Positions 9,729-35,922 are shown, counted from the first letter of the stretch. The stretch: 57,082 nucleotides of DNA from Candidatus Woesearchaeota archaeon (GCA_018303625.1 JAGVXV010000003.1:1-57082), one strand, 5' to 3'. Notes: generated by a model from the sequence alone, not told the origin. Program-made: numbers and translations.

Positions 9729-9747
9729 TTTAATGTACTCCCAGCCC

Positions 9748-10224: not shown

Positions 10225-10225
10225 A

Positions 10226-10423: not shown

Positions 10424-10424
10424 T

Positions 10425-10679: not shown

Positions 10680-10680
10680 T

Positions 10681-11355: not shown

Positions 11356-11434
11356 TTTTTATTTTTATAATTCAGTTGGGATATATAATTAACTTCTAAA
11401 ACTATTAATAAAATAAGAGTTTTGGTATTTAATC

Positions 11435-11465
11435 AAGCCTTTTTATTGTTTACAATTGTTCAGAA
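11435..11465. promoter_or_regulatory. Degenerate copy of phased upstream box (GTTTA-N5-GTTCA)
   Basis: 22/31 ungapped match to the 17381-17411 region copy; GTTTA lies 67 bp from ATATATA at 11381. Confidence 0.55.
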
Positions 11466-11480
11466 TTCAAAAATAAGCAT

Positions 11481-12023
11481 TTATAGTGCTTTTTTCATGA
11501 AAATATTGTTTATTTTCCCTTTTTTAACTTTTGCGATAAGCCCTTTTTTCTCAAGCTGCGATAACACTATTGATAATTTGGTTTTGGACAAATCAACCCT
11601 GTACATCAATGTTGACTGTGAAATGCCGTCCTGCTCCTTAACTGCCTGTATGACTTTCTTTTCATCTTCGTCCAGCCCTGTTAATAGAATTTTGAACCTT
11701 TCTTCTTTTGATTCCTCTGTTTTTGCAGCCTTAATGTTTTTGAGGATATTTTCTTGAACGTTTTCAAAAGACTTGGCTGTTCTGGAAAATAATACCAAAT
11801 AAGCCCCAAGGCTTAATGTAAGCGCTATTGCCGCAATACCAATGCCGAAAGGCAGAAAGCTCCTCTCATGGATGCATTTTCCGCTCTCCAGCACGCAATT
11901 GCCGCTGCCCAGATTCATCAACTGGTCGTTCATCTGGTTAAGCTGGATTTTCAGAATAGATAAGATCACAATAAATATTATGCCTATAAAAACAACTAGA
12001 TAGCCAATTTTTTTATTGTCCAT
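11481..12023 (-). CDS. Membrane-anchored winged-helix transcriptional regulator
   Basis: 2 TM with CVLESGKC loop; LDEDEKKVIQAVKEQDGISQSTL...LSKTKLS...LEKKGLI wHTH. Confidence 0.88.
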   Translation of the reverse strand: MDNKKIGYLVVFIGIIFIVILSILKIQLNQMNDQLMNLGSGNCVLESGKCIHERSFLPFGIGIAAIALTLSLGAYLVLFSRTAKSFENVQENILKNIKAAKTEESKEERFKILLTGLDEDEKKVIQAVKEQDGISQSTLMYRVDLSKTKLSIVLSQLEKKGLIAKVKKGKINNIFMKKAL

Positions 12024-12065
12024 AGTTTTAAGGTAATTCAATCCTTTATAAAAATCTTATTGATT

Positions 12066-12521
12066 TCATTTATTTTTTGATTTATTATCTAAACTTAAAA
12101 TGCCTGCCCCCGAAAATACCACTGAAAGGGCCATTAAGCTTAATCCAAAGTCTCTTATTGCAATGTCGTTGTAGCCAAGCGAAAATGCAATTGAAAGCAA
12201 ATGCAAAGCCGCAATAAAGGCAGTTAATCTTGTATAAAACCCCATCAGCAATAACAATCCAAGAAGAGTATCAGCAATCCCGTTAAATGTTAAAACCACG
12301 TGCACTGAAGGCTTTGGAATGTTATGCATAAGCTGCAATGGATGCTCGTGCATCATTTGCTGCGGATGCTCATACATCCATTGCGGAATGTACCCTAAAA
12401 AAGATTCCGGGTTAATGAGCTGGCTGATTCCAAACCACAATAAGACCAAAGCAAGGCTCATCCTTACTATAAATATTGAATAATCCTTGTTTTTGATAAA
12501 AAAATCCTTTATTTTTTCCAT
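12066..12521 (-). CDS. DoxX-family membrane protein with His/Met-rich loop
   Basis: RMSLALVLLWFG...LLLMGFYTR...RDFGL...GAGILSLD. Confidence 0.85.
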   Translation of the reverse strand: MEKIKDFFIKNKDYSIFIVRMSLALVLLWFGISQLINPESFLGYIPQWMYEHPQQMMHEHPLQLMHNIPKPSVHVVLTFNGIADTLLGLLLLMGFYTRLTAFIAALHLLSIAFSLGYNDIAIRDFGLSLMALSVVFSGAGILSLDNKSKNK

Positions 12522-12568
12522 GGGCTAAAATCAATTTTAATGTTGTTTATACTTATATGCTTTTGAGG

Positions 12569-12961
12569 TTATTTTACTGTTAAATCCCCTTTCATGGAGC
12601 TGTGGCCTTCCCCGCAGTAAACAGTGCATAAAAACGGGAAAGTTCCCTGCTTGCTTGCGGTAAACTCTATTGTTACCTGCTTTCCTGCCGGCACCTGCTC
12701 GTTGATGTTGAAATCCGGCAGTGCAAAGCCATGAGCAACATCCTGGCTTTTTATTATCAACCTTACCACTTCACCTTTGTTTACGATTATGGTATTTGGC
12801 TCGAAATTGAATCTGGATGCTTTGATATTAATAACTCTTACATTATCATCAAATTTTCCAGAGCCGTCTAATATTTCCGGGCTTTTTGTGCAGCCAAAAA
12901 TAAATATAATAGCTGCTAAAAATGTCGCTAAAATTATCTTTCTCATAATGAATTTAATCAT
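12569..12961 (-). CDS. Cupredoxin lipoprotein with CuA-type ligand set
   Basis: DVAHGF...CTVYCGEGHSSM; lipobox FIFGC. Confidence 0.92.
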   Translation of the reverse strand: MIKFIMRKIILATFLAAIIFIFGCTKSPEILDGSGKFDDNVRVINIKASRFNFEPNTIIVNKGEVVRLIIKSQDVAHGFALPDFNINEQVPAGKQVTIEFTASKQGTFPFLCTVYCGEGHSSMKGDLTVK

Positions 12962-13386
12962 TTTATTTTTATTTTATTTTTTTGAAATTTTCCTTTGATA
13001 TAAAAGAGCAGGCTCAAAACAAACAAGGTTCCTCCAATTATCCAAAATATTGCCAAATAGCTTTGCAATGCTTTGAAAGGAACACCTGCTATTATGATTC
13101 CGGAATTCAGCATTAATAAATTTTTTGAAATGCACTTCTTTTTAAAATAAAAAATTAATGTAATTGCAAATAGCAAAACAGCAGCTGTCCAGAATGGGAT
13201 TGCAACTTTCTGCAAAAAAAGCAAAGGCATTCCAACTATTGTAATGCCTATAAATGAAAGCAATGCAATTATGCCTAGGCAGACATTATGGCATACCTGA
13301 TAGCCTCCCAGGAAGCTTAATGCCCCTGACAGGGAGCTTGAGAAAGATGTTGCCTTCTCTACTATAAACTTTTTTGCCTTATCCAT
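12958..13386 (-). CDS. Multi-TM membrane protein with QVCHNxC motif
   Basis: Paralog of 5276..5698. Confidence 0.8.
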   Translation of the reverse strand: MDKAKKFIVEKATSFSSSLSGALSFLGGYQVCHNVCLGIIALLSFIGITIVGMPLLFLQKVAIPFWTAAVLLFAITLIFYFKKKCISKNLLMLNSGIIIAGVPFKALQSYLAIFWIIGGTLFVLSLLFYIKGKFQKNKIKIK

Positions 13387-13387
13387 T

Positions 13388-14146
13388 CTAATGATTTTTT
13401 GAAAAATCAGTTATTGAGCTAATTTGCTGCTTTATTTCTTTCTCGCCCTCATCCCCATAACTTACCAAAATCTTGTCATTATCATTAAATACATATTCTT
13501 CATATTCAGGATTTTCAATTCCGTTAACAAAAAATTTCAAATTATTATTCCTGTCATTGCAATAACTTTCTTTATTATCTAAAACAAAACATTCTTTGTT
13601 AAATTTTATTCCAATGCTCTTGAAGAATACCCATAATGGGACTCCTGTTGCATGCATATGGATGACATCGCCTTCTTTTTCCGGGAATGAGGCTCCTTTA
13701 TCAAAGTGAATAAAGCTGCTGGTTATCCGGCTGTCCATTTTTGACATATCCATAGCCAGCGGCCCTAACACATTTTCATCCAATACATTCCCCAATATAT
13801 ATATTTTCAAGTCGGCATGAAGGTGCTGCGAGCCTAAAATGCCAATAGTTGACTTTGAATCCATGTTGCATTGAAGCTGCCCAGAACTAATGCACATATC
13901 TACTGGCATTCCGCAGCTGTCGCATTGCCCGTCATTATTTTTGTCCATAAACTCCTTTGCTAATTGGGTGTCAAATGGCGTGAGCGACATTGCACTCATT
14001 CTCGATCCCATGCCCGATATTGTATTTGAATTTGGATTAATTTGCGATGGAAAAAACAATGATTTTGAAACATAAAATAGTGAAAAAAGAGCTACAATAA
14101 TAGTTAATACTATAAAACCTGTTAATATTTTCTCTGCATTAGCCAT
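13388..14146 (-). CDS. Membrane-anchored protein: CxxCGM..C module plus HxH/HxH domain
   Basis: CDSCGMPVDMC; HLHADLKIYI; VIHMHATG; paralog of 3372..3878. Confidence 0.8.
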   Translation of the reverse strand: MANAEKILTGFIVLTIIVALFSLFYVSKSLFFPSQINPNSNTISGMGSRMSAMSLTPFDTQLAKEFMDKNNDGQCDSCGMPVDMCISSGQLQCNMDSKSTIGILGSQHLHADLKIYILGNVLDENVLGPLAMDMSKMDSRITSSFIHFDKGASFPEKEGDVIHMHATGVPLWVFFKSIGIKFNKECFVLDNKESYCNDRNNNLKFFVNGIENPEYEEYVFNDNDKILVSYGDEGEKEIKQQISSITDFSKNH

Positions 14147-14149
14147 TTT

Positions 14150-14623
14150 TCAAGTTGTATCAATATTCTCTCCGTATGGATGTATCAATTTCCATCCTGG
14201 AATTACATCCCCTTGCCTGTATTTTAATGTGAATGTTCCGTCAAATTTGCTTTTTGCCCCGTTTGCAAAGGAAAACTCTACGCTATAATCAACCGCCGCT
14301 GTATTGCCATCATTTGAACTTTCTTTTATTGACAATATTCTTGCATTATCAATGCCCTGCGATTCTGCATATTCTTTGAATGCCCCCAAATCCTTTGCTG
14401 TAGGCTCTATTTTCTTAAAGCCGTCTGAAATTGCAGCGTACATATCCGGATAATTCTTATTGCTCCATGCAGTAAAATACTGCTCAACTACCTTTTCAGG
14501 CGATGGTGTTTCATATTCTGGGATATTGTTTTTTTTAGTAAGCGTTATGTAAGCAATGCCTGCAATCAAAAACGCAATAAAAACCAAGATTGTTGCCAGA
14601 TTTTTCCCCTTCATCCCAACCAT
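14150..14623 (-). CDS. Membrane-anchored NTF2-like (DUF4829/DUF4878-like) protein
   Basis: SPEKVVEQYFTAW...GWKLI pattern. Confidence 0.65.
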   Translation of the reverse strand: MVGMKGKNLATILVFIAFLIAGIAYITLTKKNNIPEYETPSPEKVVEQYFTAWSNKNYPDMYAAISDGFKKIEPTAKDLGAFKEYAESQGIDNARILSIKESSNDGNTAAVDYSVEFSFANGAKSKFDGTFTLKYRQGDVIPGWKLIHPYGENIDTT

Positions 14624-14638
14624 TTTAATGATATAAGT

Positions 14639-15766
14639 TTATTGCACTTGTACAATTTCCCCTGATGCCAAGTCTTTGTAAGTTCCCAAACTTTCAGGCT
14701 TTCTCATGACATACCAGCCATCACCCTCAATAGTGCCAACGCTTTGCCATACCTGGACAAAAGCAGGATACTCCGAAACCTCTGGCGACAATAGAAGCGC
14801 AGGAACTTTTTCTATATTGTACTTCGCAATTAATTCCCTGACCTCATTTGAAGAAACATCATAAGCCTCTTCTTCATTTACAAAAACCCCGAACCTTGGA
14901 AGTATCTGCTTGTTTATACTGACATCATAGCATTCCCCGCATGAGCTGTCATCAAGCAGGATTATTTTTACCAAGCCAATAACTTTTCCCTGTTTTAAAT
15001 CCCTATAAGGCGCTGATGTGGCATGCAACGCATAAAAGCCATTTTTCTCTTCAGCAAGCTGCTGAATTTGCTCTTTAACATCATAATAATTAACTTCGTT
15101 TGATATTAATATTGCTGGAATTCTGCTGATGTCAAACCTGTTAATAAGCCCTATGCCTTCACTGGAAAAATACTCATAGGTCTTTTCTTCTGTTATTGCA
15201 ACACCTGACTGTTTCAAGGCATCTGCAACCTGGCTTAACGGTATGCATTCCTCACACAAAGAATCCACAACATTTATTACCGAGACTTTTCCTACAACTC
15301 TAGACAAAGTAACATCATAGTATGGGGGCTTTAGGCTCGTAAAAACCACATTTTTTTCATCTGGAAAATCTCCGATATTGCCAAAAAAAGACTTTAGCTG
15401 CTCTGTCTTGTTTGTTTCCCCTGAAATTATTAATGTCGGAATTTTTTCAATATTATACTTATCTATAATTTCTTTTGCATAATTCTCATTTAAGTAAATA
15501 GTTCTTTCTTCAGTCACATTGACATTCTGCTTTTTTATGCTTTCCAATGCAGTTTCTATGTCAAAGCATTCTTCGCAGTCAGAAAGCAATATTTTTGTCA
15601 CTTCTAATTTGGCGGGCCTTAGAAACTCTTTAGCTATTTCTTTTGCCTCATTAACCTTTTCTGCCCTGCCTTGAATAATGTAAATATTCATTAAGGATAT
15701 TGCTCCTATTAAGGCAAGCATCACATATAGCAATACCTCTACTCTGTTTTTTTTCAATCCAACCAC
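14639..15766 (-). CDS. Membrane-anchored protein with three tandem thioredoxin-like CxxC domains
   Basis: CEEC/CEEC/CGEC, each followed by a KIPT/RIPA/KVPA cis-Pro-like loop. Confidence 0.8.
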   Translation of the reverse strand: MVGLKKNRVEVLLYVMLALIGAISLMNIYIIQGRAEKVNEAKEIAKEFLRPAKLEVTKILLSDCEECFDIETALESIKKQNVNVTEERTIYLNENYAKEIIDKYNIEKIPTLIISGETNKTEQLKSFFGNIGDFPDEKNVVFTSLKPPYYDVTLSRVVGKVSVINVVDSLCEECIPLSQVADALKQSGVAITEEKTYEYFSSEGIGLINRFDISRIPAILISNEVNYYDVKEQIQQLAEEKNGFYALHATSAPYRDLKQGKVIGLVKIILLDDSSCGECYDVSINKQILPRFGVFVNEEEAYDVSSNEVRELIAKYNIEKVPALLLSPEVSEYPAFVQVWQSVGTIEGDGWYVMRKPESLGTYKDLASGEIVQVQ

Positions 15767-15777
15767 TCCCTAATTCA

Positions 15778-15987
15778 TTAACAGCCGCCAACCATTGAAG
15801 GCAGATTTTCCAAACTGGCGGGAGTTGAAACTCCAGAACTTACACCAGTCGCGCTTGGAGCTGCGCTGCCTCCAGATGTTACAACAACCGGATTGTTGCT
15901 TAAAGACACCAACTGCACTGCCTGAACAACTGTTGTCAGGACTAAAACAGTTATCAGCACAATCAGCAAAATTTCTTTTCTTTCCAT
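15778..15987 (-). CDS. Short membrane-tethered MVGGC-terminal protein
   Basis: RBS GAGGTG; TM, VQAVQL, Ser/Gly/Pro linker, PSMVGGC*. Confidence 0.88.
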   Translation of the reverse strand: MERKEILLIVLITVLVLTTVVQAVQLVSLSNNPVVVTSGGSAAPSATGVSSGVSTPASLENLPSMVGGC

Positions 15988-16005
15988 TTTTTCACCTCAA
16001 AAATT

Positions 16006-17244
16006 TTAAACTTGAGCCTCTAATAGGATTCTTTTGACAGTAGGACCTGGATACCACAAGGCATACCATCTTGCCATCTCCCCATAAATTTCCTCATCAG
16101 AGTAGCTGCTGCCGTAATTTTTAATGAACCACTTTGCCATGCCTTGTGCTGCCAGTGAATGCGCGCAGCCGCATCTTGTTATTATTGTCGGGTTTTGCGG
16201 GCTTCCGCAGCAGTAATCGCATGTAAATGAATTCACAATTCTGCCCCATCTCTGCTCTTCCTGCGGGCTTAATTGTATTGCTCTGCCTTTTGCCCATAGG
16301 TTTTGCGCTGTTATAGGATCGTCAAAGCTTACTCCTGCTTGCTGCCCATACCAAGGAGTTCCGCTTGGCACAACATTATTCACTAAATCCTGGGCAGCAT
16401 TCCCTGTCAAGGGCTTCATTTGAAGCTCGCTTATGGTTGGAATGGGCTTTACCTTTGATCTGTAGCCTTGTATTGCAGGCTGCTCGCCCTGAGCCAAAGG
16501 CATTGGCTTCAAGGTTATTTTCGGGCCATATTCAAAACTTCCCAAATTGGCTGTGCCTCCAGATACTGAAGATAAAGCAGTTGTCGCAAATGCCTTGGGT
16601 ATCATTAAATTGTTAAAAACAAGCAAAAGTGTCAGAACAACAAGGCTGCCAAAAGCTATATTGTTTTTGTATAAGAACATTTCCTTATTTTTATCATGCC
16701 TCTCAACCTTTACCTCGCAGCTTTTGCATTTTTTGCTGTGAATACTATCGGCTTTGAAATAAACAGCCATTCCAAGCAATCCAATAGAAGCAACTTTTAA
16801 AAAGCCAAGATACGGCGTTAAAAAGGCAGTAGGAATGTTAAGCAGTGTGCTTCCAAAAGCAACTATTCCTATGCTTTGGCATACTGGGCATATTGCCCCT
16901 ACAATTCCTGCAAATCCACCGCCAACCCCGCCTATTGAAGATGCTGAAGCAAGCTTACTCCTTCTCTCATACAAGAACAACGATAAAAAAATGGATGTAA
17001 GGGCAGAAACAGCAATGACAAACAGGTAATCAAAAAATCCAATGCCGGATAGCCTGTTAATTCCAAAGTCTATAATAGGTATTTTCCAGAATCCATACAG
17101 GAAACTGTAAACTATCAAAAAAGCAGTTATAGATATCAGTAGAATTTTCTTGCTTTCTTCCCTTTTTAGAATTTCAATACTGGTTGAGAGAATATTTTCC
17201 TTTTTCTCTTCTTTCATGGCTTTGTGTTTTCCTTCTGATTCCAT
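16006..17244 (-). CDS. Multi-TM protein (CPVC, CKSC) fused to CxYCC/CGCAHS domain
   Basis: ICPVCQ in TM region; CDYCCG...CGCAHS...SDEEI shared with 10681..11355. Confidence 0.82.
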   Translation of the reverse strand: MESEGKHKAMKEEKKENILSTSIEILKREESKKILLISITAFLIVYSFLYGFWKIPIIDFGINRLSGIGFFDYLFVIAVSALTSIFLSLFLYERRSKLASASSIGGVGGGFAGIVGAICPVCQSIGIVAFGSTLLNIPTAFLTPYLGFLKVASIGLLGMAVYFKADSIHSKKCKSCEVKVERHDKNKEMFLYKNNIAFGSLVVLTLLLVFNNLMIPKAFATTALSSVSGGTANLGSFEYGPKITLKPMPLAQGEQPAIQGYRSKVKPIPTISELQMKPLTGNAAQDLVNNVVPSGTPWYGQQAGVSFDDPITAQNLWAKGRAIQLSPQEEQRWGRIVNSFTCDYCCGSPQNPTIITRCGCAHSLAAQGMAKWFIKNYGSSYSDEEIYGEMARWYALWYPGPTVKRILLEAQV

Positions 17245-17375
17245 TTTGCTGTAATTATCAATACTTATTAATATTTTATTCCTTAAAACTGAATTTTAAT
17301 AATTAAACTTTTATAATGTATTTGATATATAAACCTTATCTTAAAAACAAAGAAAAGTATAAGGCTTTGTTTTGC

Positions 17376-17414
17376 CTGAAAAGGCTTATTTGGGTTTATT
17401 ATCGTTCATAAGGG
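17376..17414. promoter_or_regulatory. 39-bp upstream box, copy 1
   Basis: 36/39 identical to 35866..35904; 10-bp-phased GCTTA/GTTTA/GTTCA units. Confidence 0.7.
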
Positions 17415-17436
17415 ATTATTTTTGCTTTTTTATTAA

Positions 17437-18204: not shown

Positions 18205-18219
18205 AATGCCTTTTTGCAG

Positions 18220-19008: not shown

Positions 19009-19095
19009 TTAAAATAATAATTTCCTCTTTTGTTTTTAAATTTATTGAATTTTTAGGATAAGATGTTAAAATACTTTGTTTCTACTTTTTACTGT

Positions 19096-20211: not shown

Positions 20212-20239
20212 TTGTTTTCACCTCAAATAAAATTTAATT

Positions 20240-24322: not shown

Positions 24323-24403
24323 TCTTTTTGTCCCTCTTTTATAATCTTGAGGTGCTTATTTTCCTCAGACGGTTTCCAGCGGATCATTAAGGTACATCAC
24401 AGA

Positions 24404-25399: not shown

Positions 25400-25410
25400 T
25401 TTTATCAACC

Positions 25411-26705: not shown

Positions 26706-26739
26706 TTTTTCTCTATGCAAGCTTATTCGGACAATAACT

Positions 26740-26949
26740 TTATTCAGTACTATTTTTTTCAAGAGCACTTATAATTGCTTCTTTTATTTGCTCTTTTAAT
26801 TCTTCACTTTGATTTACAGACGTTTGATTCATCACTATATTTTGATTTCCTTGAACACTTCTTACTGTAACCTCTTTTTCAATTCTCTGTCCGACACACC
26901 CACTTATGAGTAAAATAACCATTAATATTATTACAGTTTTTATCAACAT
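26740..26949 (-). CDS. Small lipoprotein
   Basis: Lipobox LISGC. Confidence 0.65.
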   Translation of the reverse strand: MLIKTVIILMVILLISGCVGQRIEKEVTVRSVQGNQNIVMNQTSVNQSEELKEQIKEAIISALEKNSTE

Positions 26950-26958
26950 TTTAATTTA

Positions 26959-27969: not shown

Positions 27970-28003
27970 CCCCCCTTTATGCTATTCAGATATGAACTCC
28001 TAT

Positions 28004-31000
28004 TTAAACATTCTGCGTTAAAGTTCCTTTCAAAAATAAATAACCAGTTTCATTTACATTAATAACCAAATTTCCATTATTTTTAATTCTAAAATCATTT
28101 CTGTTTATATCAGAAGTTATTGTTGCTTGGTTTTCTGCTAAAGTTCCGTCAATATACATGCTGCCATTGTTTTCTATAATTAGAACATCTTTTTGATTGT
28201 TTCTTATCACAAAGGCAAAAGTAGATGTTCTTTGGAAGTTTGAGTTTTGCTCTAGAATTCCTTTTAGGACTAATTTTCCGGTAGTACTGAACCTAGCTAT
28301 ATTGTTTCCTGAACTATCTTTAATATAAAATGGCTTGCAGGAAGTATCAGAACTACAATCACTATCATCACAATCTAAATTACCATCATTATCATTGTCT
28401 ATACTATCGGCACATGTATTTTGACAGACAGAATAGCTATCTACACATATAGATGTACCCTCGCCACCTTCTGCTTTATCACAAGTAGGACTAGAACTTC
28501 CATAATCACAACCACCAGTGCCATCACAAAATCCCTGACTTGGAATTTTGTAATCTAAATTATTGTATGCATTATTTCCCCCAGATGAACCAGAGCATGC
28601 ATAATTAGAATTGCATAATGAAGATGTACCATAGAAACTGCAGCTTCCTAAGGCAGTTCCAGTGCAGCTAGAAGAATCAATAAAGGTACATGTACTACAA
28701 GAATATTGCGGCTGATCATTTGATTGAGTGCTGCAATCAACTGTGTTGGCATCTTTACAATTTCCAAAACCTTCACATCTATTTGAAGTTATATCTTGCT
28801 TATTGTAACAAGTCTCTGTTGCAGTGGGGCTTTCTGTGCCTGATTGAGCATAGTATCCTCCACACTCTATTACTCCGCAAGCAGTATCATCTAATGGAGT
28901 TCCTGAGCAGGTTCCCCCAGAACAGGTCATGCAAGTTCCACAGCTTTGGCCATTACAAACAGAATCAGCACAATCTGTTTGGCTATTGCAATTGTTGTCT
29001 TTACTATCACCGCAAATCTCAGGCCTTCCAGGATATATGTTAGGATCATTATCATCACAATCGGTTCCTAACGAACAATCTTGTCCGTAACCGTCTCCAT
29101 CATTGTCTGTGCAAGGCTTACAATACAATATCTCTACTGTTGCATCTCCAGCATTCTGCATGTACCATTCATCTTGAGCTGGTTCAGGCCACCAGGAATA
29201 AGCCATTAACCAATCTTTTTGTCTCCATAACTCATCCTTATACTGTTCAGTTACATCTAAATTATTAAATCCAATCTTACAATTTCCTGCTCCTTCGTCA
29301 ACTTTTTCATAATTGGATTTATCTGTAAGTTTCTCCTCATAATTTTCTGCGTCATCAAGGTTCTCCTCATTTTTTATATAAAAATAAAGATCTGTATTCT
29401 TGCAACTACTTGCTCCAAAATTATTATACCATTCTAAATCTACATCTACAATATCATTTTCCTTTGTTTCGTCTAGGTAATTATCGCAATCATTTATATC
29501 AAAACTTGCTGCATAACCAAAATCCTCATCACAGTCGTCTCTGCCGCATACCAATACGGGAGCTGAACTGCCTATATTATGTGCTTGTTTGGCAGTTATC
29601 TCTAACTCAACCATTGATGTTGGATCATGTTCACACTGCTCTAATGTCTCATCATCCCTACATTCCCATGGATTCCCACATGAAGTATCAAATACACATC
29701 TTGATTCTGTGTTGCAACTAGAAGGGTTGCAGCTTCTAGTTTGCAACATTTGGTTTGAGTCACAGCTGCCAGCACCACAACCAGCATCAACATAACTGCC
29801 GCATAAACATACACTTCCTCCACAATCTGAATCACTTCCATCCGTCAATAAATCACAATCATTGTCTTTTCCATCGCTGCATAACGTTTCAGCAGAGTTT
29901 GGATGTATTGTTGAATCAGCATCATTGCAATCACTAGCACTGCAAAAGCCGTCATTGTCTGCATCTGTCGTACTTATCTCTACCCAGACAGGATTTGTGT
30001 AAATTCGGTACTCATTATTGCTTCCACCAATGCATTCTGCTCGGTAATACGAATTTTGAGTGACAGAAGGATCCTCTCCGACAACTGTTGGAGGCTCTGG
30101 ACCAGTGCCAGATTTAGAGCCAAAATTAAAACCAGTTGGATCTTCACTTCCTTGATCTATTCTCCCTTTAAATACAACTAGATTACATGTATCTTGTACA
30201 TTACTATAATGAGGCCGAATGGTAACTTTATCACCTGAACAAACAGTAGCTGTCCCTCCTTGCATTGTATAGCCGGCTTGGTTTTGTCCTTTAGCTTCAA
30301 TCCAGACAAGGCCGTTGTTGGAGACTGTTACTTTGCCAGAGACTGTTACTTTGCCATTACTAAGAGCAGATTTTAGATTCGCCTGAGTCAAACTTCCATC
30401 TAGGTAAACACTATTATACACATATAATGGTATGACCTCATCATGAGAATCTGAACCACTATAAGCATAGACTTTTACATTGTTTTGTAAAAGATTAATC
30501 CAAGCGTTTAGAGAATCCTGATTATCTTCGCTCCAAACACCATTCCACACTTCAATACCTGTTTCGCCAGCAATTTCAAACATAGACTCAAAATCTATAA
30601 ATCTTCCTTCTGGTTGAGGATGATTAATAATTGAAATTCCATTTTCATTAGTGATGTTGTTAATACCTCCTTGATTTGTTGGGTTTGTGGGGCAGTGGCG
30701 ATTTCTCGGAGTCTGCTCTATAAAATTATCAATGCCATAAGCACCAATATGTGCCTCTCCTAGAGTACCTTCACAAGTATTAGAAAGTTCTAGGATTATT
30801 TCATTATCATTTAATCTATCTGAAACACTCAACTCTTCACCTACTAAGCAAGTAAAATCGGGATCATTATCTGCAGCACTGCAGTTTTGATTTACTATTT
30901 GAAATTCTGTTTCATTGATACAATATGAATGATCTGAAAATCCCAAAAAATCTAAATTAGCCTGTTCTGCTTCAACTGCTAGGTCCAAAACAGTTCTTCC

Positions 31001-31198
31001 GTTGTCATGCCCCTCCAAAATTCTTGGCAAGCAATCATCTTCAGGAGTATCAGAATTTCCGTCATATCCATGGTCTGTACTAAATCCAGTATGTTGATGA
31101 AGGCTGCCATAATACCATCCTGCGGCCAAAGCTTTTGTGGAGATTAAAATAATTAAAATAATCAAAAATATTACAAATAAATGATTGTTTAGTTTCAT
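28004..31198 (-). CDS. Secreted PHP-family (CehA/McbA-like) metallohydrolase with Cys/Asp-rich repeats and shared C-terminal module
   Basis: LHQHT, SDH, GEE, INHP, GIEVWNG, GSDSH; DCNDADSTIHP...DGKDNDCD repeats. Confidence 0.85.
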   Translation of the reverse strand: MKLNNHLFVIFLIILIILISTKALAAGWYYGSLHQHTGFSTDHGYDGNSDTPEDDCLPRILEGHDNGRTVLDLAVEAEQANLDFLGFSDHSYCINETEFQIVNQNCSAADNDPDFTCLVGEELSVSDRLNDNEIILELSNTCEGTLGEAHIGAYGIDNFIEQTPRNRHCPTNPTNQGGINNITNENGISIINHPQPEGRFIDFESMFEIAGETGIEVWNGVWSEDNQDSLNAWINLLQNNVKVYAYSGSDSHDEVIPLYVYNSVYLDGSLTQANLKSALSNGKVTVSGKVTVSNNGLVWIEAKGQNQAGYTMQGGTATVCSGDKVTIRPHYSNVQDTCNLVVFKGRIDQGSEDPTGFNFGSKSGTGPEPPTVVGEDPSVTQNSYYRAECIGGSNNEYRIYTNPVWVEISTTDADNDGFCSASDCNDADSTIHPNSAETLCSDGKDNDCDLLTDGSDSDCGGSVCLCGSYVDAGCGAGSCDSNQMLQTRSCNPSSCNTESRCVFDTSCGNPWECRDDETLEQCEHDPTSMVELEITAKQAHNIGSSAPVLVCGRDDCDEDFGYAASFDINDCDNYLDETKENDIVDVDLEWYNNFGASSCKNTDLYFYIKNEENLDDAENYEEKLTDKSNYEKVDEGAGNCKIGFNNLDVTEQYKDELWRQKDWLMAYSWWPEPAQDEWYMQNAGDATVEILYCKPCTDNDGDGYGQDCSLGTDCDDNDPNIYPGRPEICGDSKDNNCNSQTDCADSVCNGQSCGTCMTCSGGTCSGTPLDDTACGVIECGGYYAQSGTESPTATETCYNKQDITSNRCEGFGNCKDANTVDCSTQSNDQPQYSCSTCTFIDSSSCTGTALGSCSFYGTSSLCNSNYACSGSSGGNNAYNNLDYKIPSQGFCDGTGGCDYGSSSPTCDKAEGGEGTSICVDSYSVCQNTCADSIDNDNDGNLDCDDSDCSSDTSCKPFYIKDSSGNNIARFSTTGKLVLKGILEQNSNFQRTSTFAFVIRNNQKDVLIIENNGSMYIDGTLAENQATITSDINRNDFRIKNNGNLVINVNETGYLFLKGTLTQNV
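30321..30356. repeat. Perfect 18-bp tandem duplication (in frame)
   Basis: GAGACTGTTACTTTGCCA x2, giving GKVTVSGKVTVS. Confidence 0.9.
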
Positions 31199-31506
31199 GT
31201 AGTTTTTATCTTCATTTTTTCTTCGATTAAATATGCAATAACTGCCCCAATTATGACCCATAAAATTATATTTGATAAAATTGAAGTGATTAGAATAATA
31301 TTTGTCATAGTTGATGACAACCCAGACTCTGCTAATCCCAAAAGTGGGGATATCAGTAAAGACATAGTGAACATAGACATTTTAAAGGGGATTAACCATA
31401 TTTGGTTGATATAAGCTTTAAGAAAAATTTGAACTATAGTGGGTATTAAAGCGTATATCCCTCCGATAATCCCTCCGATAAAAATATCTTTATGTTTTAT
31501 TTTCAT
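31195..31506 (-). CDS. Small membrane protein
   Basis: Hydrophobic; ATGA overlap with the PHP gene. Confidence 0.7.
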   Translation of the reverse strand: MKIKHKDIFIGGIIGGIYALIPTIVQIFLKAYINQIWLIPFKMSMFTMSLLISPLLGLAESGLSSTMTNIILITSILSNIILWVIIGAVIAYLIEEKMKIKTT

Positions 31507-31631
31507 GTTCGTATTCCCCCACTCAGTAAAATATTGAGTTTGTACCACCTACACCACAGTACAATTAGAAGTATTATACTAATAAAAGGTAGTACAGTTA
31601 ATAACGAGACGTTTTTTGTCATTTTAGTTGA

Positions 31632-34214
31632 TTAAATCCAAATTCCTGAACGTATTGTTATAGTAATATTATCCGTCGTTTCATACTCTTTTCCTTGATG
31701 ATAATATTTAATTGAAAAATTCAATCCAGCCGTATTGTTAACAGTAAAATTATTGTCAAATATTTCATTAGGTGTTATATTGATTAATTGCGGATGAATT
31801 ATAAGGTAGTTACTATTAAAATTTGAACCGCTGGACATATTTTTCGAATAATAAAGATCTCCATCAGCCTCATAAATGTTAAGAAGGCCTAAGGTCAAGG
31901 AATTATTTAGGTATTCGCTGTAACTCAACACAACATATTTGGATGTATTAATATTGTTCACTATCCAACTACCAATATGGTGAAGTAAGTTTACCTCAAT
32001 ACTAACATTAACATCAAAAACATCACTCCATTGCTCCTGGGAAGAATTATCTTTTGCAACACATTCCCACTGGTAATTTCCATTTGACAAATTAGTTACA
32101 TTAAACATAACACCATTTGTTAATCCAGATAATGGTTTAGTTTCACGCAAAGTTAAATTTCCAGTCAAATTAAAATACAAAGACATATTTGTTAAAGCAT
32201 AGTCATCAGTAGCATTGCATGAAAAGAAAATATAGCCGTCAGTATCAACTGTATTATTTGCAGGAGAAGTTAAAATGAATCTGGGCTTGGTATCACTGCC
32301 TTCATAAACAGTAAAAGTGGCATTATTGCTGCTTATATTCATCCCATGTTTATCAAATGTGGTAAAAACAACAGTAACATTTCCAAACCAGTTTTTAGCC
32401 GATTCCAAAACAGCAATATTACTTTCATTATTAAGCATAATAGTAACATTTCCAGTATGTTTTTCAATATAAGTTAAATCGTCTCCTTTAGGATCTGAAA
32501 AATAGTTGCTCAAATTCAAAGTTAAAATTCCATCTTCTGTCCAGAATAAGTTGGGAATGGTGGAAACTGTAGGAGGATACTTATCAACTACAAGCATAAA
32601 ATTGGAAAACCCTCCCCAATCAGAGTTTGGAACCCGTGCATCATCATAGCAAATAACGTTCCAGTCAAATTCCCCACTCGGAACATTATTTATAGTAAAA
32701 TACAAAGAAACGTTTGTCTGCACAAAAGTGTTTGATTGGTTTGGTAAAAAAGAGCCGCTAATGTTATGGTACAAAGTGCAATTCCTAAGCAAGCCATCAT
32801 CTTGAACTGTATAGTTAAATGTAATATCTCCATCATTGTCATCAGAGCCATAAATAGGTGTGTTTAGAGTTACAACAGGCTCTTTATTTACTATTAACTC
32901 CCATGAATTTGAAGAGCCGACATTAGCATTTGGAGACGTATCTGTGCAGTTTATTCTCCACTCATAGCTGCCATAATTAAGATTTTTAATAGTAAAATTT
33001 TGCCTTTCTAGTTCAGTTATAGTGGTATTGGTTTGGTTTGTTATGTCATCAATAATCAGCCTACAGCTAGAAACATCATAGCTAAAATCGCTAACCATGT
33101 ACTCAAATGTTACATTTCCTAAAATATCTATTTCACCATTTTCTGGCTCTATAAGAGATATAACTGGGGAAGAATTATCCCTAACTTCAAAACTTCTTTG
33201 TACAGAGCTGCCAACATTTGCGTCTGTTGACAAATCAGTGCAATTAACAGACCAAGTGTAGTTGTTATCTTTTAAACCTATTAAACCAAAAAACTGTGTT
33301 TTAGATTCCAAAACTAATGAATCAGTCATATTTATTTTACCATTAATAATTAAGGAACATCTATCAATGGCAGAAGTTACATCTGATACATTATAGCTAA
33401 ATATTATTGCTCCATCAGAATCTGTTACTGAATCTGCTGGTTCCACTAAATTTACTGTTGGAGTTTCTAAATCATCGCCAATCTTAAAGCTATTATTTAT
33501 TCCAAATGCAGAAAATGACTCATTATCATAAGCCAAGCAGCTCCATAGATAATCTCCATTTGGAATATTGTTTAATGTCAAGGTTGTAGTATTAACAGTT
33601 CCTGATACCAATGTTGTTTGGTTTAATCGCCATGCTCCACTTACATTATTATATAAGGAAATATTAACAAGTTTGTTGTAAGTTCTAGAAGTGCAATTAA
33701 AAATCAAGCTACCATCCTTATCAGTTGTTTGATTCAAAGGTTTATTTAGAAAAACTTCGACAGGATTTACAGGCTCTGCAATGAAAATGTAATCAGTCAC
33801 ATTTAATAGATCATAACCAGATTTAGAACCGTTGCAAAGCACGTTCCAGCTATTATTTCCGCTTGCATTAATTTGTCTTTCAAACCTGTATAATTTTCTA
33901 AAAGAATTGTAGCTCATGTTTTCTAAAGCAGTCCAGCTTCCGCCGATATTAAATCTTATTTGGCAAAAAGATGCTGCATCTGAAATCGGTTCTCCAGTTG
34001 AATTATCCGTAAAATTAGCGGAAAATGTAACAAATTCTTGAATTAGTATTGTCCTATTGCCTCCTTCCACATCTACTTCATCCCAAATAACCAATTTGGA
34101 ATTATTTCCTTGAGTTTCAGAAATAGCATACACTAATAAGATAGAAACAGCTAATAACACAACTATAGAAAATATAACTAACTGGCTCCTCTTTTCACCA
34201 ACCGTCAAAACCAC
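31632..34214 (-). CDS. Surface protein with repeated disulfide-containing Ig-like domains
   Basis: N-terminal TM; repeats F.(C/Y)...G.Y.W...C.D; many N-x-S/T sequons. Confidence 0.8.
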   Translation of the reverse strand: MVLTVGEKRSQLVIFSIVVLLAVSILLVYAISETQGNNSKLVIWDEVDVEGGNRTILIQEFVTFSANFTDNSTGEPISDAASFCQIRFNIGGSWTALENMSYNSFRKLYRFERQINASGNNSWNVLCNGSKSGYDLLNVTDYIFIAEPVNPVEVFLNKPLNQTTDKDGSLIFNCTSRTYNKLVNISLYNNVSGAWRLNQTTLVSGTVNTTTLTLNNIPNGDYLWSCLAYDNESFSAFGINNSFKIGDDLETPTVNLVEPADSVTDSDGAIIFSYNVSDVTSAIDRCSLIINGKINMTDSLVLESKTQFFGLIGLKDNNYTWSVNCTDLSTDANVGSSVQRSFEVRDNSSPVISLIEPENGEIDILGNVTFEYMVSDFSYDVSSCRLIIDDITNQTNTTITELERQNFTIKNLNYGSYEWRINCTDTSPNANVGSSNSWELIVNKEPVVTLNTPIYGSDDNDGDITFNYTVQDDGLLRNCTLYHNISGSFLPNQSNTFVQTNVSLYFTINNVPSGEFDWNVICYDDARVPNSDWGGFSNFMLVVDKYPPTVSTIPNLFWTEDGILTLNLSNYFSDPKGDDLTYIEKHTGNVTIMLNNESNIAVLESAKNWFGNVTVVFTTFDKHGMNISSNNATFTVYEGSDTKPRFILTSPANNTVDTDGYIFFSCNATDDYALTNMSLYFNLTGNLTLRETKPLSGLTNGVMFNVTNLSNGNYQWECVAKDNSSQEQWSDVFDVNVSIEVNLLHHIGSWIVNNINTSKYVVLSYSEYLNNSLTLGLLNIYEADGDLYYSKNMSSGSNFNSNYLIIHPQLINITPNEIFDNNFTVNNTAGLNFSIKYYHQGKEYETTDNITITIRSGIWI

Positions 34215-34320
34215 CCCTAATTCTCATTCCCGCGGTAAACTTATATTTATAATTTTCTCTTATTCTAAATTATAAAGAAATCTGGCGCATGAAGAATTTA
34301 TTACTAAAAATTTTATCTTT

Positions 34321-34788
34321 TCATTTAATTGAGCATCCTGTCAGTTCAGAAAGCCTGTCAAATGACTGGACTCTTTCAACTAATCTTCCATTAATTTCCC
34401 ATGTCGGGGTTATCCTTACATCAGGATTTTCGCTGAAGTCTTTGTAGTTTATGAATTTAAAAGATTTGCCGAACATGCCTTTCTGCGCACTGGAGTACTG
34501 GCAGAAAGAAGCGCCATACATTACAGCACCCTTTTCAGTCAGGCATTTCGCGAAATTATCATAGCTTCCAGGTTTTTTTGCATTAATGAATGCATAAGCC
34601 CCTATAAAAACAATAAGAATAGAAAAAACAATTGCTATTATTATATAAACCCTCGTTTTTTTGCTTTTTGCAGCCTGCTGTTCTTGAGTTTCTTTGTGCT
34701 TTTTCTGCTCAAACTCAAGCCTTGACTGCTCGCTTTGCTGCCTTAGCTTCTCCAGCCTTAGCTTTTTTCTTTCTTCCCTGCTAAGCAT
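34321..34788 (-). CDS. Membrane-anchored thioredoxin-like protein (CxxS variant)
   Basis: AKCLTEKGAVMYGASFCQYSSAQK...PTWEING. Confidence 0.8.
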   Translation of the reverse strand: MLSREERKKLRLEKLRQQSEQSRLEFEQKKHKETQEQQAAKSKKTRVYIIIAIVFSILIVFIGAYAFINAKKPGSYDNFAKCLTEKGAVMYGASFCQYSSAQKGMFGKSFKFINYKDFSENPDVRITPTWEINGRLVERVQSFDRLSELTGCSIK

Positions 34789-34789
34789 T

Positions 34790-34993
34790 TTACAGGTTTG
34801 TTGCTGCCGGACTTACAACTGGAGTTCCTGTATTTTCAGCAGGCGCAACTCCGCAGCCTCCGCCATAGTACTGGTTGGGGTTTTGCTGCTGCTGCGGATA
34901 TGCCGCATAGCCTGTTGGCGCGTTGCTTCTGGCGCATCCTACAACCAATAATGCCAGCACTAAAATCAAAACTAAAATAGCGCTTTTCTTCAT
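34790..34993 (-). CDS. Small lipoprotein with GGGCGV motif
   Basis: Lipobox VVGC; RBS GGAGG. Confidence 0.8.
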   Translation of the reverse strand: MKKSAILVLILVLALLVVGCARSNAPTGYAAYPQQQQNPNQYYGGGCGVAPAENTGTPVVSPAATNL

Positions 34994-35002
34994 TTTAACC
35001 TC

Positions 35003-35737
35003 CTAGCTTGACAATTCAGTATCTATTATCTGCTTGAAGCTCTCGTAAGGATGAGCTCCGACAAGCTTTATGCCATTAATAAAAAAGGTTGGGGTTCCTG
35101 AAACACCGACCTGAGACCCATAGTTGAAGTCGTCCAGTATTTCCTGCTTATATTTGCTGCTGTCCAGGCATTCATTAAATTTCTTTGTGTCCAGGCCAAT
35201 TTTTTGCGCAAATTGCTTGTATGCAGCATTGCCCATGCTATCCTGATTTTGGAATATTGAGTCGTGCATTTCCCAATACTTGCCCTGCTCGCCTGCGCAA
35301 TTTGCAGCTTCGGCTGCCGGCTCGGCTTCAGGATGGAAGCTTAATGGGAAATCGCGGTAAATATACTTTACTTTTCCGGTGTCTATATAATCTTTCTTTA
35401 TCAGCGGGAAAGTCTGCTGGAATGCCCTTCCGCAGAACGGGCATTGGTAGTCTTCAAACGATACTATTGTGACAGGGGCATTTTTATCGCCCAAAGTAGG
35501 ATCATCATCTTCATCAATTGTAAGCCTTAATTGCTCGCCCGAATCCTGCGGCTGTTGCTGAGTCGGCACTTGAGCCTGGGCAGGAGCTGCTTGGTTGCTG
35601 CCGCCAAACTTTCCAAAAAACATAACTATAATCACAATACCTAATACCGCGGCTATGCCTTGCCATACCCTCTCTTTTTTAATCACATAAACTTTATCGT
35701 TTTTAGCTGCATGATGCGCATGCTCATTGTCTTCCAT
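35003..35737 (-). CDS. DsbA-family thiol-disulfide oxidoreductase
   Basis: DYQCPFC, RDFPLSFH, GVSGTPTFFING. Confidence 0.93.
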   Translation of the reverse strand: MEDNEHAHHAAKNDKVYVIKKERVWQGIAAVLGIVIIVMFFGKFGGSNQAAPAQAQVPTQQQPQDSGEQLRLTIDEDDDPTLGDKNAPVTIVSFEDYQCPFCGRAFQQTFPLIKKDYIDTGKVKYIYRDFPLSFHPEAEPAAEAANCAGEQGKYWEMHDSIFQNQDSMGNAAYKQFAQKIGLDTKKFNECLDSSKYKQEILDDFNYGSQVGVSGTPTFFINGIKLVGAHPYESFKQIIDTELSS

Positions 35738-35865
35738 TTTAACACCCCATTTTTGTTGTTGAAACTTTTGTTTTTATATAAATTTTTCTTATTTTTGGTA
35801 TTTTAACAGAATAACTATATATAGCTAACTTTGGAAACCATGCTTGAAAAAACGCCTGTTTTCCG

Positions 35866-35904
35866 CTGAAAAGGCTTATTTAAGTTTATTACCGTTCATA
35901 AGGG
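35866..35904. promoter_or_regulatory. 39-bp upstream box, copy 2
   Basis: 36/39 identical to 17376..17414; enclosed by inverted repeat GCCTGTTT/AAACAGGC. Confidence 0.7.
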
Positions 35905-35922
35905 CTTAAACAGGCTTTTTTA

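Follow-up and report, generated by a model that had tools for sequence, protein, structure and literature searches.

Three sites in the window analysed here, a 57,082-nt stretch of DNA from Candidatus Woesearchaeota archaeon (GCA_018303625.1 JAGVXV010000003.1:1-57082), are best explained as copies of one conserved archaeal promoter module of ~110-115 bp, an explanation that, taken as a whole, we hold somewhat likelier to be right than wrong. The module precedes cysteine- and copper-handling operons in this archaeon and in many relatives, and a membrane-anchored regulator, often encoded next to it, probably docks at its box. What stood of the three-operon regulon proposed in the initial annotation is a shared cis-element at a fixed distance from a TATA-like element, ahead of three operons of one functional system.

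All three modules and their operons are on the minus strand. Module A (17320-17436; 71.4 bits, E 7e-20 with the module model R1) serves the operon starting at 17244 and contains a TATA-like element (17325-17332) and the phased units GGCTTA (17383-17388), GTTTA (17394-17398), CGTTCA (17403-17408), GATTA (17414-17418) and GCTTTTTT (17424-17431). Module B (35812-35926; 73.9 bits, E 1e-20) serves the DsbA operon starting at 35737, with a TATA-like element at 35816-35823 and the units GGCTTA (35873-35878), GTTTA (35884-35888), CGTTCA (35893-35898), GCTTA (35904-35908) and GGCTTTTTT (35913-35921). Module C (11376-11490), a diverged subtype, serves the operon starting at 11355; its TATA (11381-11388) lies 26 nt ahead of the ATG, its units are GTTTA (11448-11452) and GTTCA (11458-11462), and its R1 score of 46.9 bits comes from a model whose training set included the C row.

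According to ORFs, Pfam matches and translations, the operon behind module A (12569-17244) encodes a TM protein with a CxYCCG..CGCAHS domain (16006-17244), an MVGGC peptide with the C-terminus LPSMVGGC (15778-15987), a triple thioredoxin-like protein (14639-15766), further ORFs (14150-14623, 13388-14146 and 12958-13386) and a cupredoxin (12569-12961). It is followed by DoxX (12066-12521, minus strand), which has its own TATA-like element in the gap sequence, and by the regulator gene 11481-12023, whose own TATA-like element 29 nt ahead of the ATG means that autoregulation through module A would not be needed. Translations of the start of the operon behind module B (34321-35737) give DsbA (35003-35737; Pfam Thioredoxin_4 and DSBA), a GGGC lipoprotein holding YYGGGCGV (34790-34993) and a 155-aa membrane protein (34321-34788), and the same three genes stand behind the box in the related genome G003. 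The operon behind module C (8221-11355), also in the same gene order in G003, comprises a Cys-rich protein ending in MVGGC (10681-11355), two peptides that both end in MVGGC (10425-10724 and 10226-10471), DUF411 (9748-10254), an HCPLC membrane protein (9204-9728), a further ORF (8699-9202) and a rhodanese (8221-8649). Each operon thus encodes at least one GGC-motif protein, as had been annotated.

Boxes A (17376-17414) and B (35866-35904) are identical at 36 of 39 positions, the figure claimed at the outset and reached again on recount. When the whole genome (1.34 Mb) was searched by blastn-short with the A region, the B copy was found at E 7e-9 and no other match appeared below E 0.1; likewise, a scan of 2.67 million positions with the 36 positions common to A and B as consensus gave 36/36 matches only at these two boxes, the next best places reaching 25 and 24. 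Ungapped similarity extends over 108 nt (17326-17433 versus 35816-35923, 70%), and the likeness is concentrated in the box because only 29/54 positions beyond it are identical. The distances between the starts of ATATATA (17325, 35817 and 11381) and GTTTA (17394, 35884 and 11448) are 69, 67 and 67 nt in A, B and C, in agreement with the annotated values.

Box C (11435-11465) matches box A at 22/31 positions; this count was correct in the initial annotation, but the site is a diverged subtype rather than a plain degenerate copy. With a 29-nt matrix built from six A/B-type boxes it scores 8.6 bits and ranks ~141 in the genome, and with a model trained without C-type rows it scores 14.1 bits (E 0.05) and ranks sixth, so that box C is not significant by sequence alone (14 bits, E 0.05). 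The combination GTTTA-N5-GTTCA occurs only five times in the genome, and three of these occurrences are boxes A, B and C. Furthermore, G003 (27/29), G019 and G002 have the box C block at the orthologous position and G009 retains a degenerate version there; this conservation spans four other genera.

An alignment of 19 modules is essentially without gaps and reveals a common layout. Four to five (G)G-Y-T-T-A repeats, read on the strand opposite to the gene-sense strand, stand exactly 10 bp apart, the strongest being GTTYA-N5-(C)GTTCA; they are followed by a ~40-bp spacer with phased A/T tracts and then by a purine/A-rich BRE-like stretch and a TATATA-type TATA. A TGAAA(A)C element is conserved 8-12 nt away from TATA. 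Read along the gene-sense (minus) strand, the core is TGAAC-N5-TAAAC, and the boxes are direct repeats, not inverted ones, with a weak dyad around the invariant CG of the core discernible by eye. The 10-bp period of 5-bp units that had been annotated recurs in every row aligned: units 2 and 3 are tandem direct repeats 10 nt, or one helical turn, apart in 47/47 rows. Similarly constant is the distance from TATA to unit 2, which is 66 (1 row), 67 (23), 68 (21) or 69 nt (2), so that the loose TATA spacing named beforehand as evidence against a regulon is not seen in any of the 47 rows; in five or six more distant modules it is 57-59 nt, one helical turn shorter. Conservation in the CGTTCA columns reaches 98 percent for G, 100 for each T, 79 for C and 96 for A. 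Over 48 distinct modules, G+C-rich columns (42-43, 52-53, 61-63, 71-72, 81-82, 91-93 and 101-103) follow a period of 10 through seven helical turns, with an autocorrelation of 0.61 at lag 10 and 0.45 at lag 20.

In archaeal BRE/TATA promoters a purine/A-rich BRE adjoins TATA on the 5′ flank, and transcription starts ~25-30 nt downstream of TATA. Across this genome, TATA hexamers are most frequent at -30 to -26 relative to start codons (266 per 5-nt bin versus ~40; 725 starts), and general promoters carry an A-rich stretch immediately 5′ of TATA on the sense strand. TATA-type octamers are present in all modules, with the same A-rich stretch 5′ of TATA on the gene-sense strand, and the start codon lies 9-27 nt beyond the TATA-side module end in 27 of the 47 modules with an ORF. 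These features point to a promoter polarity directed at the downstream genes. In most relatives the start codon follows TATA by ~25-30 nt, therefore implying leaderless mRNA; modules A and B here have a ~55-nt leader. If transcription starts ~25 nt after TATA, the repeats would lie at roughly -70 to -115.

Model R1, which was trained on the same family and whose alignments lean towards the model, finds 48 near-full-length copies in 27 of the 41 genomes of the Woesearchaeota-type family, one to three in each; the box is thus present upstream in many of the relatives, where its absence from orthologous operons had been named as a warning sign. Nor is the motif scattered, another such sign, as R1 detects three modules in the own genome and the next match has 16 bits. 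Among 148 genomes of other families R1 gives five more matches, four of which look real by their downstream genes, and the first downstream genes outside the family include CopZ-like HMA chaperones. In addition, 11 further family genomes have GTTYA-N5-GTTYA (at most one mismatch) ahead of homologous genes, with proteins only 28-59% identical. Module A has orthologues in G003 and G013, and in the same two genomes the orthologues of module B precede DsbA with a different upstream neighbour; coding DNA is 70-79% identical there, whereas intergenic DNA other than these orthologous boxes cannot be aligned. Such conservation of the module goes well beyond what neutral evolution would leave. Its upstream neighbours vary (Lgt, ZIP, CcdA-like, VIT-like and others). 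Behind the 48 modules, the first gene is of the MVGGC type in 19 cases, of the 16006-17244 type in five, DsbA in four, cupredoxin-like in nine, a GGGC lipoprotein in three, CcdA-like in one and unclear in seven. The first downstream genes form one functional set, and the box goes with the downstream gene. The cupredoxin-like first genes are lipoproteins.

The best candidate for the binding protein is the membrane-anchored DUF7343 winged-helix family, represented locally by 11481-12023 (minus strand; identified by Pfam PF24034, family alignment and AlphaFold2) and by its paralog 2-460 (minus strand), the C-terminus of which is cut by the contig end. The regulator ORF (11481-12041) matches PF24034 (DUF7343) with 45.9 bits and the paralog with 29.9 bits, against a cut-off of 27.6 bits. 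The protein consists of a TM helix, a short outside loop of ~20 residues in which two Cys (CX6C) are invariant, a second TM helix that continues as a long cytoplasmic helix, and a C-terminal winged helix (AlphaFold2 model, pLDDT 76); the paralog is 40% identical, with the same layout and CX6C loop, and the CopA gene (486-3110) lies 26 nt upstream of it. All but four fragments among the 102 relatives found carry PF24034. The initial annotation had taken the local regulators for OmpR/ToxR-type proteins, a class assignment that is not upheld: Pfam (E ≤ 0.01) assigns DUF7343, MarR, TrmB and HTH_24 to 11481-12041 and 2-460 and no Trans_reg_C, and the matches listed from a PDB profile search and Foldseek include MarR, HlyU/ArsR, MecI and RPC39 and neither OmpR nor ToxR. 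The likeness to OmpR/ToxR is therefore an analogy of site layout only, and the uncharacterised DUF7343 family is MarR/ArsR-like.

The two local winged-helix genes singled out in the initial annotation are members of the one regulator family that turns up repeatedly right next to the module. The stop codon of 11481-12023 lies 13 nt from box C, and G000, G003, G019 and G023, as well as four other families (G047, G073, G111 and G172), have a DUF7343 gene whose end directly adjoins the box. When 80 loci were fetched by the protein alone and then scanned with R1, 21 matches were obtained in 18 of them, and in 16/80 the module begins at the regulator stop codon in the expected orientation. The 41 family genomes, whose relatedness makes the counts non-independent, divide into 22 with regulator and module, four or five with the module only, two with the regulator only and 12 with neither; G004, G014 and G015 have target-type genes with neither regulator nor module. 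Against the linkage, the regulator gene adjoins no module in the largest genus (g11).

We rather favour, by a modest degree, a module that acts as the activating site of the membrane-anchored DUF7343 regulator and so co-regulates envelope thiol/copper genes; binding, signal and sign of control are what we infer from sequence here, whereas the module's conservation, copy numbers, spacing and phasing, the genes behind it and the regulator gene's linkage to it are direct observations. The regulator (11481-12023 and/or 2-460) would bind the repeats in tandem on one helix face, its outside loop with the two invariant Cys would sense thiol-oxidising or copper stress at the envelope, and the upstream-bound factor would most likely aid TBP/TFB/RNA polymerase, thereby co-regulating these genes; activation is suggested by the upstream position of the box. 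Several points count against this. Winged helices of the MarR, ArsR and BlaI kinds generally occupy dyad sites as dimers, which, like the weak dyad in the core, speaks against tandem binding, and a near-consensus TATA would also suit a promoter that needs repression, not help. Moreover, the repeats at -70 to -115 are further upstream than the ArnR boxes, placed at -43 to -84 in the available text of PMC6396743.

The same regulator at the same site might instead repress, nucleating on the GTTYA units, spreading along the weaker phased spacer units or looping to BRE/TATA until envelope stress frees the factor, a reading that we take seriously but consider clearly less probable. The TATA is near consensus and the BRE-like stretch matches the general promoters of the genome; the 10-bp periodicity runs through the spacer to columns 42-43, with a conserved C (column 27) beside TATA; and the relatives of the regulator include MarR, ArsR and BlaI/MecI, which are mostly repressors. 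However, more than 40 bp separate TATA from the best-conserved units upstream, and protein bound at that distance cannot block TBP/TFB by itself; moreover, the spacer is poorly conserved between A and B (29/54). It is improbable that the module works as structural DNA without a dedicated regulator, curvature or histone/nucleoid-protein positioning setting promoter strength: G/C positions followed by T or A tracts do recur over seven turns and the spacing classes differ by one helical turn, but curvature alone does not need the near-invariant letters of CGTTCA, only one to three copies per genome exist, all ahead of one functional gene set, and one regulator family is tightly linked to them. 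Equally improbable is binding by a different factor, namely the PadR-TRASH protein (7577-8053), the TrmB-like protein (36707-37438) or an unlinked one, with DUF7343 a mere neighbour. TRASH domains are metal-binding, a TRASH protein adjoins one module in G017 and the DUF7343 gene is unlinked in g11; yet tblastn against all fetched module loci finds PadR-TRASH only at G017 (C-terminal part) and TrmB-like only at G000, whereas in at least five families a DUF7343 gene is immediately next to the module.

Action as RNA, whether as 3′ UTR/terminator of the upstream gene, small RNA or 7-codon mini-ORF (minus strand, ATGAACGxTAATAAACxxAAATAA), is very improbable. In A, B and C alike the box begins 13-23 nt past the stop codon of the upstream gene, most modules have a sense-strand T run after unit 1, and box B alone is enclosed by an 8-bp stem with T6, which A lacks. 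The downstream genes, however, stay the same where the upstream ones change, G003 retains the box ahead of DsbA although ZIP is missing, and the ATG of the mini-ORF falls on a column without conservation. The modules have no match in an Rfam 15 scan of the window, in which a tRNA (49777-49863) is the only match at gathering score; single-sequence fold z-scores range from -0.1 to -1.9, and the RNAalifold result for 48 modules is an open chain whichever orientation is folded. An RNA element is disfavoured by this absence of an Rfam match and of a shared fold. Finally, A and B could be read as att-like scars, direct repeats that arose when the intervening 18.5 kb was inserted or recombined, since 39-bp direct repeats flank a ~15 kb block of giant surface-protein genes that is absent in G003 and G013. 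This is scarcely credible: 48 modules occur in 27 genomes among unrelated neighbours, Pfam identifies no integrase between the repeats (17437-35737), and the reading is refuted by G003 and G013, which hold both boxes at the same places without the insert.

An upstream activating site with a one-component regulator, as favoured here, is rated as a known kind of system, not described so far in DPANN archaea. OmpR/PhoB response regulators bind several head-to-tail sites, spaced by about one helical turn, ahead of the core promoter; the site layout is alike, but here there is no receiver domain and no Trans_reg_C, and the promoter is archaeal. Archaeal CopR/CopT are soluble metal-binding TRASH-domain regulators of copper-handling genes, acting at the cop promoter. 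Copper-handling genes of an archaeon are concerned here as well, and a PadR-TRASH protein is encoded in the window (7577-8053), whereas the box is linked to membrane-anchored DUF7343 and covers thiol-relay genes, DsbA and cupredoxins. ToxR of Vibrio cholerae (with TcpP and CadC) recognises the tox-box TNAAA-N5-TNAAA according to the available part of PMC8517210, and shares with the present system a membrane-tethered winged helix with extracytoplasmic Cys and, ahead of promoters, an AT-rich direct repeat in which 5-bp units recur every 10 bp; as described there, however, ToxR is bacterial, its DNA-binding domain is an OmpR-type Trans_reg_C, and a single TM helix connects to a periplasmic domain that is folded, in contrast to the MarR/ArsR-like domain, the TM hairpin with a ~20-residue loop and the predicted archaeal TBP/TFB promoter of the present system. 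In the accessible text of PMC6396743, ArnR/ArnR1 of Sulfolobus acidocaldarius is a one-component regulator with two TM helices whose paired boxes at the arlB (flaB) promoter lie upstream of BRE/TATA, and ArnR is needed for promoter activity. Anchoring by two TM helices, candidate upstream boxes and the archaeal one-component design are thus common to both. As far as that text describes it, ArnR begins with an HTH, continues with a HAMP-like and sensor part and ends in TM helices, whereas here the domain order is reversed, a TM hairpin with the Cys-pair loop being N-terminal and the winged helix C-terminal; ArnR-type membership is ruled out by this order, by the lack of a match between the NCBIfam ArnR model and 11481-12041, and by the direct boxes. 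The ArnR boxes in that source are inverted (TCGAC-N5-GTCGA) and its regulon covers archaellum and pili, while the repeats described here are direct, have a 10-bp period, lie further upstream and precede envelope thiol/copper genes in another lineage.

Modules A (17320-17436), B (35812-35926) and C (11376-11490), all on the minus strand, combine a TATA box with repeats phased at 10 bp and precede the operons beginning at 17244 (first gene 16006-17244), 35737 (DsbA) and 11355, respectively. The sequences 17376-17414 and 35866-35904 are, as the initial annotation had stated, identical at 36 of 39 positions, and its positions for the ATATATA and GTTTA elements were all reproduced, together with their spacings of 69, 67 and 67 bp. 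In a blastn-short search of the whole genome (1.34 Mb in 58 contigs, 38% G+C, the window being one entire contig of 57,082 bp), the second copy was the sole significant match (E = 7e-9; all others, E of at least 0.1), and beyond A and B the best genomic site shares at most 25 of the 36 common letters. The third copy has the 22/31 identity ascribed to it and is weak by sequence score, reaching 8.6 bits (rank about 141 of 2.67 million positions) with a matrix built from six A/B-type boxes and 14.1 bits (E = 0.05) when C-type rows were left out of model training. Genome-wide, GTTTA-N5-GTTCA, the exact core, is present only five times, three of these being the sites first noted, and a 29-nt matrix scan of the genome gave no additional site above noise. 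R1, a sequence-only model of the module, finds exactly three strong matches in this genome (73.9, 71.4 and 46.9 bits; the next, 16 bits). Weak leave-out matches at C21:1490-1571 and C42:6375-6452 (contig and positions) were set aside, as they resemble chance matches to A/T tracts. Boxes A and B are alike at 38 of 45 positions and each matches its own ortholog at 33 of 45, a difference in sequence likeness that may reflect homogenisation or co-evolution with a factor.

The geometry of the module is nearly rigid. In an alignment of 48 distinct modules, which was fitted to R1 and hence leans towards that model, the distance from TATA to unit 2 is 66-69 nt in all 47 rows with a TATA column, and that from unit 2 to unit 3 is invariably 10 nt. 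GGCTTA, (G)GTTTATT, CGTTCA, GG.TTA and GGCTTTT are the sequences of the repeat units, and columns rich in G+C return with a period of 10 between columns 42 and 103; thus the helical phasing of 5-bp units proposed initially is borne out, over more turns than first noted. In five or six distant modules beside regulator genes the spacing is 57-59, shorter by one turn, as counted with a crude TATA finder and by hand. The short-spacing modules (loci L158, L154, L134, L167 and L199) carry the heptamer CTGAAAC twice between TATA and repeats, and the modules of the window's family have a related TGAAA(A)C 8-12 nt from TATA, with column 27 being 83% C.

Gene content and order are shared with two relatives, G003 and G013, which belong to another genus. 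The 16006-17244 proteins of these two are 82-86% identical to that of the window (coding DNA, 70-79%), and each keeps both boxes before the orthologous genes, the remaining intergenic DNA being not alignable. In G003 a gene other than ZIP lies upstream of the DsbA box, and the box therefore travels with its downstream gene. Box C is matched at 27 of 29 positions in G003; G019 and G002 have it too, along with the same TATA sequence (GATATATAATTAAC), and in G009 it is degenerate. GTTYA-N5-GTTYA, with at most one mismatch, stands upstream of 16006-17244 or 10681-11355 homologs in eleven more genomes of the family, where protein identity is only 28-59%. All 19 repeat-anchored sequences have a TATATA-type element at equal distance, and their MAFFT alignment over 120 nt contains one gap column. 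R1 gives 48 near-full-length matches in 27 of the 41 family genomes, with one to three per genome; outside the family it gives five among 148 genomes (drawn from 150 sampled genomes, with filters set more strictly), and four of these five look genuine by their neighbour genes. The literal box pattern with up to three mismatches found no match among 60 relatives outside the window's genome, and blastn of the 121-nt A region against 300 genomes of the order returned nearly all short AT-rich chance matches, the lone real one being G003:C26:5993-6028 (E = 0.005). An exact GTTTATTATTGTTCA in a kinase-like gene, at its 3′ end (G003:C21:52216), lacks a TATA element at the right distance and was regarded as chance. 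In G003 (L053, G003:C26, 2160-2420), about 250 bp with hairpin-like repeats, such as ccaccaatcagagattggtgg and ggcggaattc..gaattccgcc, have been inserted between the module A TATA and the start of the 16006-17244 ortholog.

General promoter features of the genome bear on the direction of the module. Over 725 starts taken from crude gene calls, TATA-like hexamers peak at -30 to -26 of the start codon (266 in this 5-nt bin vs about 40 elsewhere), and a Shine-Dalgarno-like motif accompanies only 141, about one in five. From these sequence counts, the mRNAs of this organism appear to be leaderless as a rule. Its promoters in general have an A-rich stretch immediately 5′ of TATA on the sense strand, and the modules carry such a stretch on the gene-sense side (AAGTAAAA-TATATATA in genus g11). 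An ORF follows 47 of the modules, and in 27 of these its start codon is 9-27 nt past the TATA-side end of the module; the layout of module C is leaderless in this way, its ATG at 11355 lying 26 nt after TATA. Extra leaders of about 50-270 nt are present behind modules A and B and their G003 and G013 orthologs, that of DsbA containing the Shine-Dalgarno-like GGGGTG. If transcription is assumed to start about 25 nt past TATA, the repeats would lie at about -70 to -115. A search for RNA sequencing runs covering 10500-18500 listed none.

Cys-rich proteins ending in MVGGC are the most frequent products of the genes that come first after the 48 family modules (19, one of them MQGGC), followed by lipoproteins ending in FCSVFCGSGHSxMKG (nine, cupredoxin-like by eye only), proteins of the 16006-17244 type (five), DsbA (four), small GGGC lipoproteins (three) and a CcdA-like protein (one); seven are short, cut or unclear. 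In other families this place is taken by, among others, CopZ-like HMA chaperones, DsbA, small Cys-rich proteins and a protein resembling DUF411. These tallies identify the regulon as an envelope thiol and copper set, in agreement with the label "GGC/thiol" that the initial annotation had given it, and the module may be a portable cassette providing promoters for thiol and copper genes that are not homologous to one another. Behind the module at 651-760 of L074 (G334:C9), the first frame is a Cys-rich 47-codon ORF (..CCAGGVCPACDCCVCIC..), which may be a small metal-binding peptide or a non-gene.

Almost every gene of 1-37 kb is carried on the minus strand, and these mostly minus-strand genes encode CopA, DUF411, cupredoxin, DoxX, thioredoxin-like, rhodanese, DsbA and ZIP proteins together with several unnamed Cys-rich proteins and peptides with a C-terminal MVGGC; TrmB, RFC, TRASH and DUF7343 domains are encoded in the window according to Pfam and give its gene set an archaeal look. 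The motif H(Q/R)HAD(F/I/L)K(V/I)Y(I/V)LGN marks an unnamed family of lipoproteins that recurs in copper/thiol clusters (3372-3878 and 13388-14146; L077 of G005). A member is once the first gene behind a module (G005:C41b), and a Pfam search with it gave no match. A block of about 15 kb (19096-34214) between the DsbA-operon genes and an lgt-adjacent gene holds very large surface-protein genes, among them those for a 1360-aa InhA-like MAM protein, a 1085-aa MopE-motif protein, an 860-aa Ig-like protein and a Peptidase_S74-domain protein; the block is absent from G003 and G013, where its flanking genes are adjacent. The 3′ ends of the two largest genes, 20240-24322 and 28004-31261, include a 300-nt direct repeat (20251-20550 vs 28009-28308, 81% identical), so both proteins have a C-terminal part in common. 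On the strand opposite to its neighbours, 7577-8053 (+) fuses a PadR-type winged helix to a C-terminal metal-binding TRASH domain; it is a second candidate metal-responsive regulator.

The upstream neighbours of the module vary, and one family recurs among them, that of small DUF7343 membrane proteins. From PF24034 (DUF7343), the family alignment A3 and an AlphaFold2 model (pLDDT 76.4, pTM 0.40), their layout is a transmembrane helix, an outside loop with two invariant cysteines, a second transmembrane helix running into a long helix and, at the C terminus, the winged helix. The initial annotation had compared the site with those bound by OmpR/ToxR-type proteins; the winged helix here resembles those of MarR, ArsR/HlyU, MecI and RPC39, and not OmpR/ToxR. 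The window encodes two such proteins, 11481-12023, whose stop codon lies 13 nt from box C, and 2-460, located 26 nt behind copA. Box C is directly behind the 11481-12023 orthologs in every case examined, and a DUF7343 gene ends at the box in G000 (the window's genome), G003, G019 and G023, as well as in G047, G073, G111 and G172, which represent four other families. When 80 loci on one-genome-per-species contigs were fetched by the protein alone and scanned with R1, 21 matches at E of 0.01 or less were obtained in 18 loci. Sixteen of these begin about -20 to +70 nt from the regulator stop codon in the expected orientation; two of the other five lie at 0.6 and 1.1 kb, and the remaining three are these sites matched again on the reverse strand. 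Across the 41 family genomes, which are related and partly incomplete (one of them, G011, is flagged as unpublished and counts as a negative), regulator and module occur together in 22, the module only in 4-5, the regulator only in 2 and neither in 12; G004, G014 and G015 possess target-type genes and lack both. The PadR-TRASH and TrmB-like proteins were rejected as binders since they are not recurrent module neighbours. As a guess, there may be two regulator/box pairs, the C-type box with the 11481-12023 type and the A/B-type with the 2-460 type. A separate TATA-like element lies 29 nt before the ATG of 11481-12023, so that autoregulation through module A is possible and not required. The 102 cluster representatives of the family are annotated as hypothetical, "uncharacterized membrane protein" or similar, and no paper on DUF7343 was found in a search of the open-access literature.

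The repeats are predicted to be a tandem binding site of the membrane-anchored DUF7343 factor. Their position upstream of BRE/TATA and their constant or whole-turn spacing point to action from one helix face, and a factor so placed would act on the basal machinery, most simply by activation. Activation by the bound factor is what we infer from the sequence, and a repressor that spreads or loops from the same site to the TATA box also fits, for the TATA box is strong, the spacer is periodic and the kin of this fold are rich in repressors. The two invariant loop cysteines and the content of the regulon suggest that the signal would be thiol oxidation or copper at the cell surface. It is possible, if rather doubtful, that the whole constitutes an undescribed archaeal device, in which a membrane-tethered winged helix with a two-Cys loop senses surface redox or copper and controls envelope genes through a rigid seven-turn element, acting from one face with the TATA distance kept in whole turns (67-68 or 57-59 bp). 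Readings of other kinds were dropped. For an RNA element, Rfam at the gathering score matched only a tRNA in the window, folding either strand of A and B (z of -0.1 to -1.9) revealed no common structure, and RNAalifold left the 48 modules as an open chain in either orientation, which also made its column-shuffle control uninformative. A mini-ORF is contradicted by an ATG column that is not conserved, and att scars of an island by the presence of both boxes in relatives without the insert.

DPANN archaea cannot yet be cultured alone, and to our knowledge almost nothing is known about their gene regulation. In searches of the open-access literature on DPANN and Woesearchaeota promoters, regulons and copper, none of the papers listed describes the module or the regulator. 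The module offers a sharply defined and testable cis-element with a named candidate regulator for this group, and it flags which uncharacterised Cys-, His- and Met-rich envelope genes share one response: those for MVGGC peptides, CxYCCG proteins, DsbA, cupredoxins and CopZ-like chaperones. It is also a clean natural example of helical-phase dependence at an archaeal TBP/TFB promoter, and the factor would be a second membrane-bound transcription factor architecture in archaea, beside ArnR. ArnR/ArnR1 of Sulfolobus is the nearest archaeal case found and has the idea in common with the present system. These are membrane-bound activators that use two inverted-repeat boxes at -43 to -84 (PMC6396743); the present system differs in protein family, domain order and site type. 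The nearest in site layout is ToxR, whose tox-box is a direct repeat TNAAA-N5-TNAAA (PMC8517210). The present system has the idea in common with ToxR as well and departs from it in protein family, domain order and transcription machinery.
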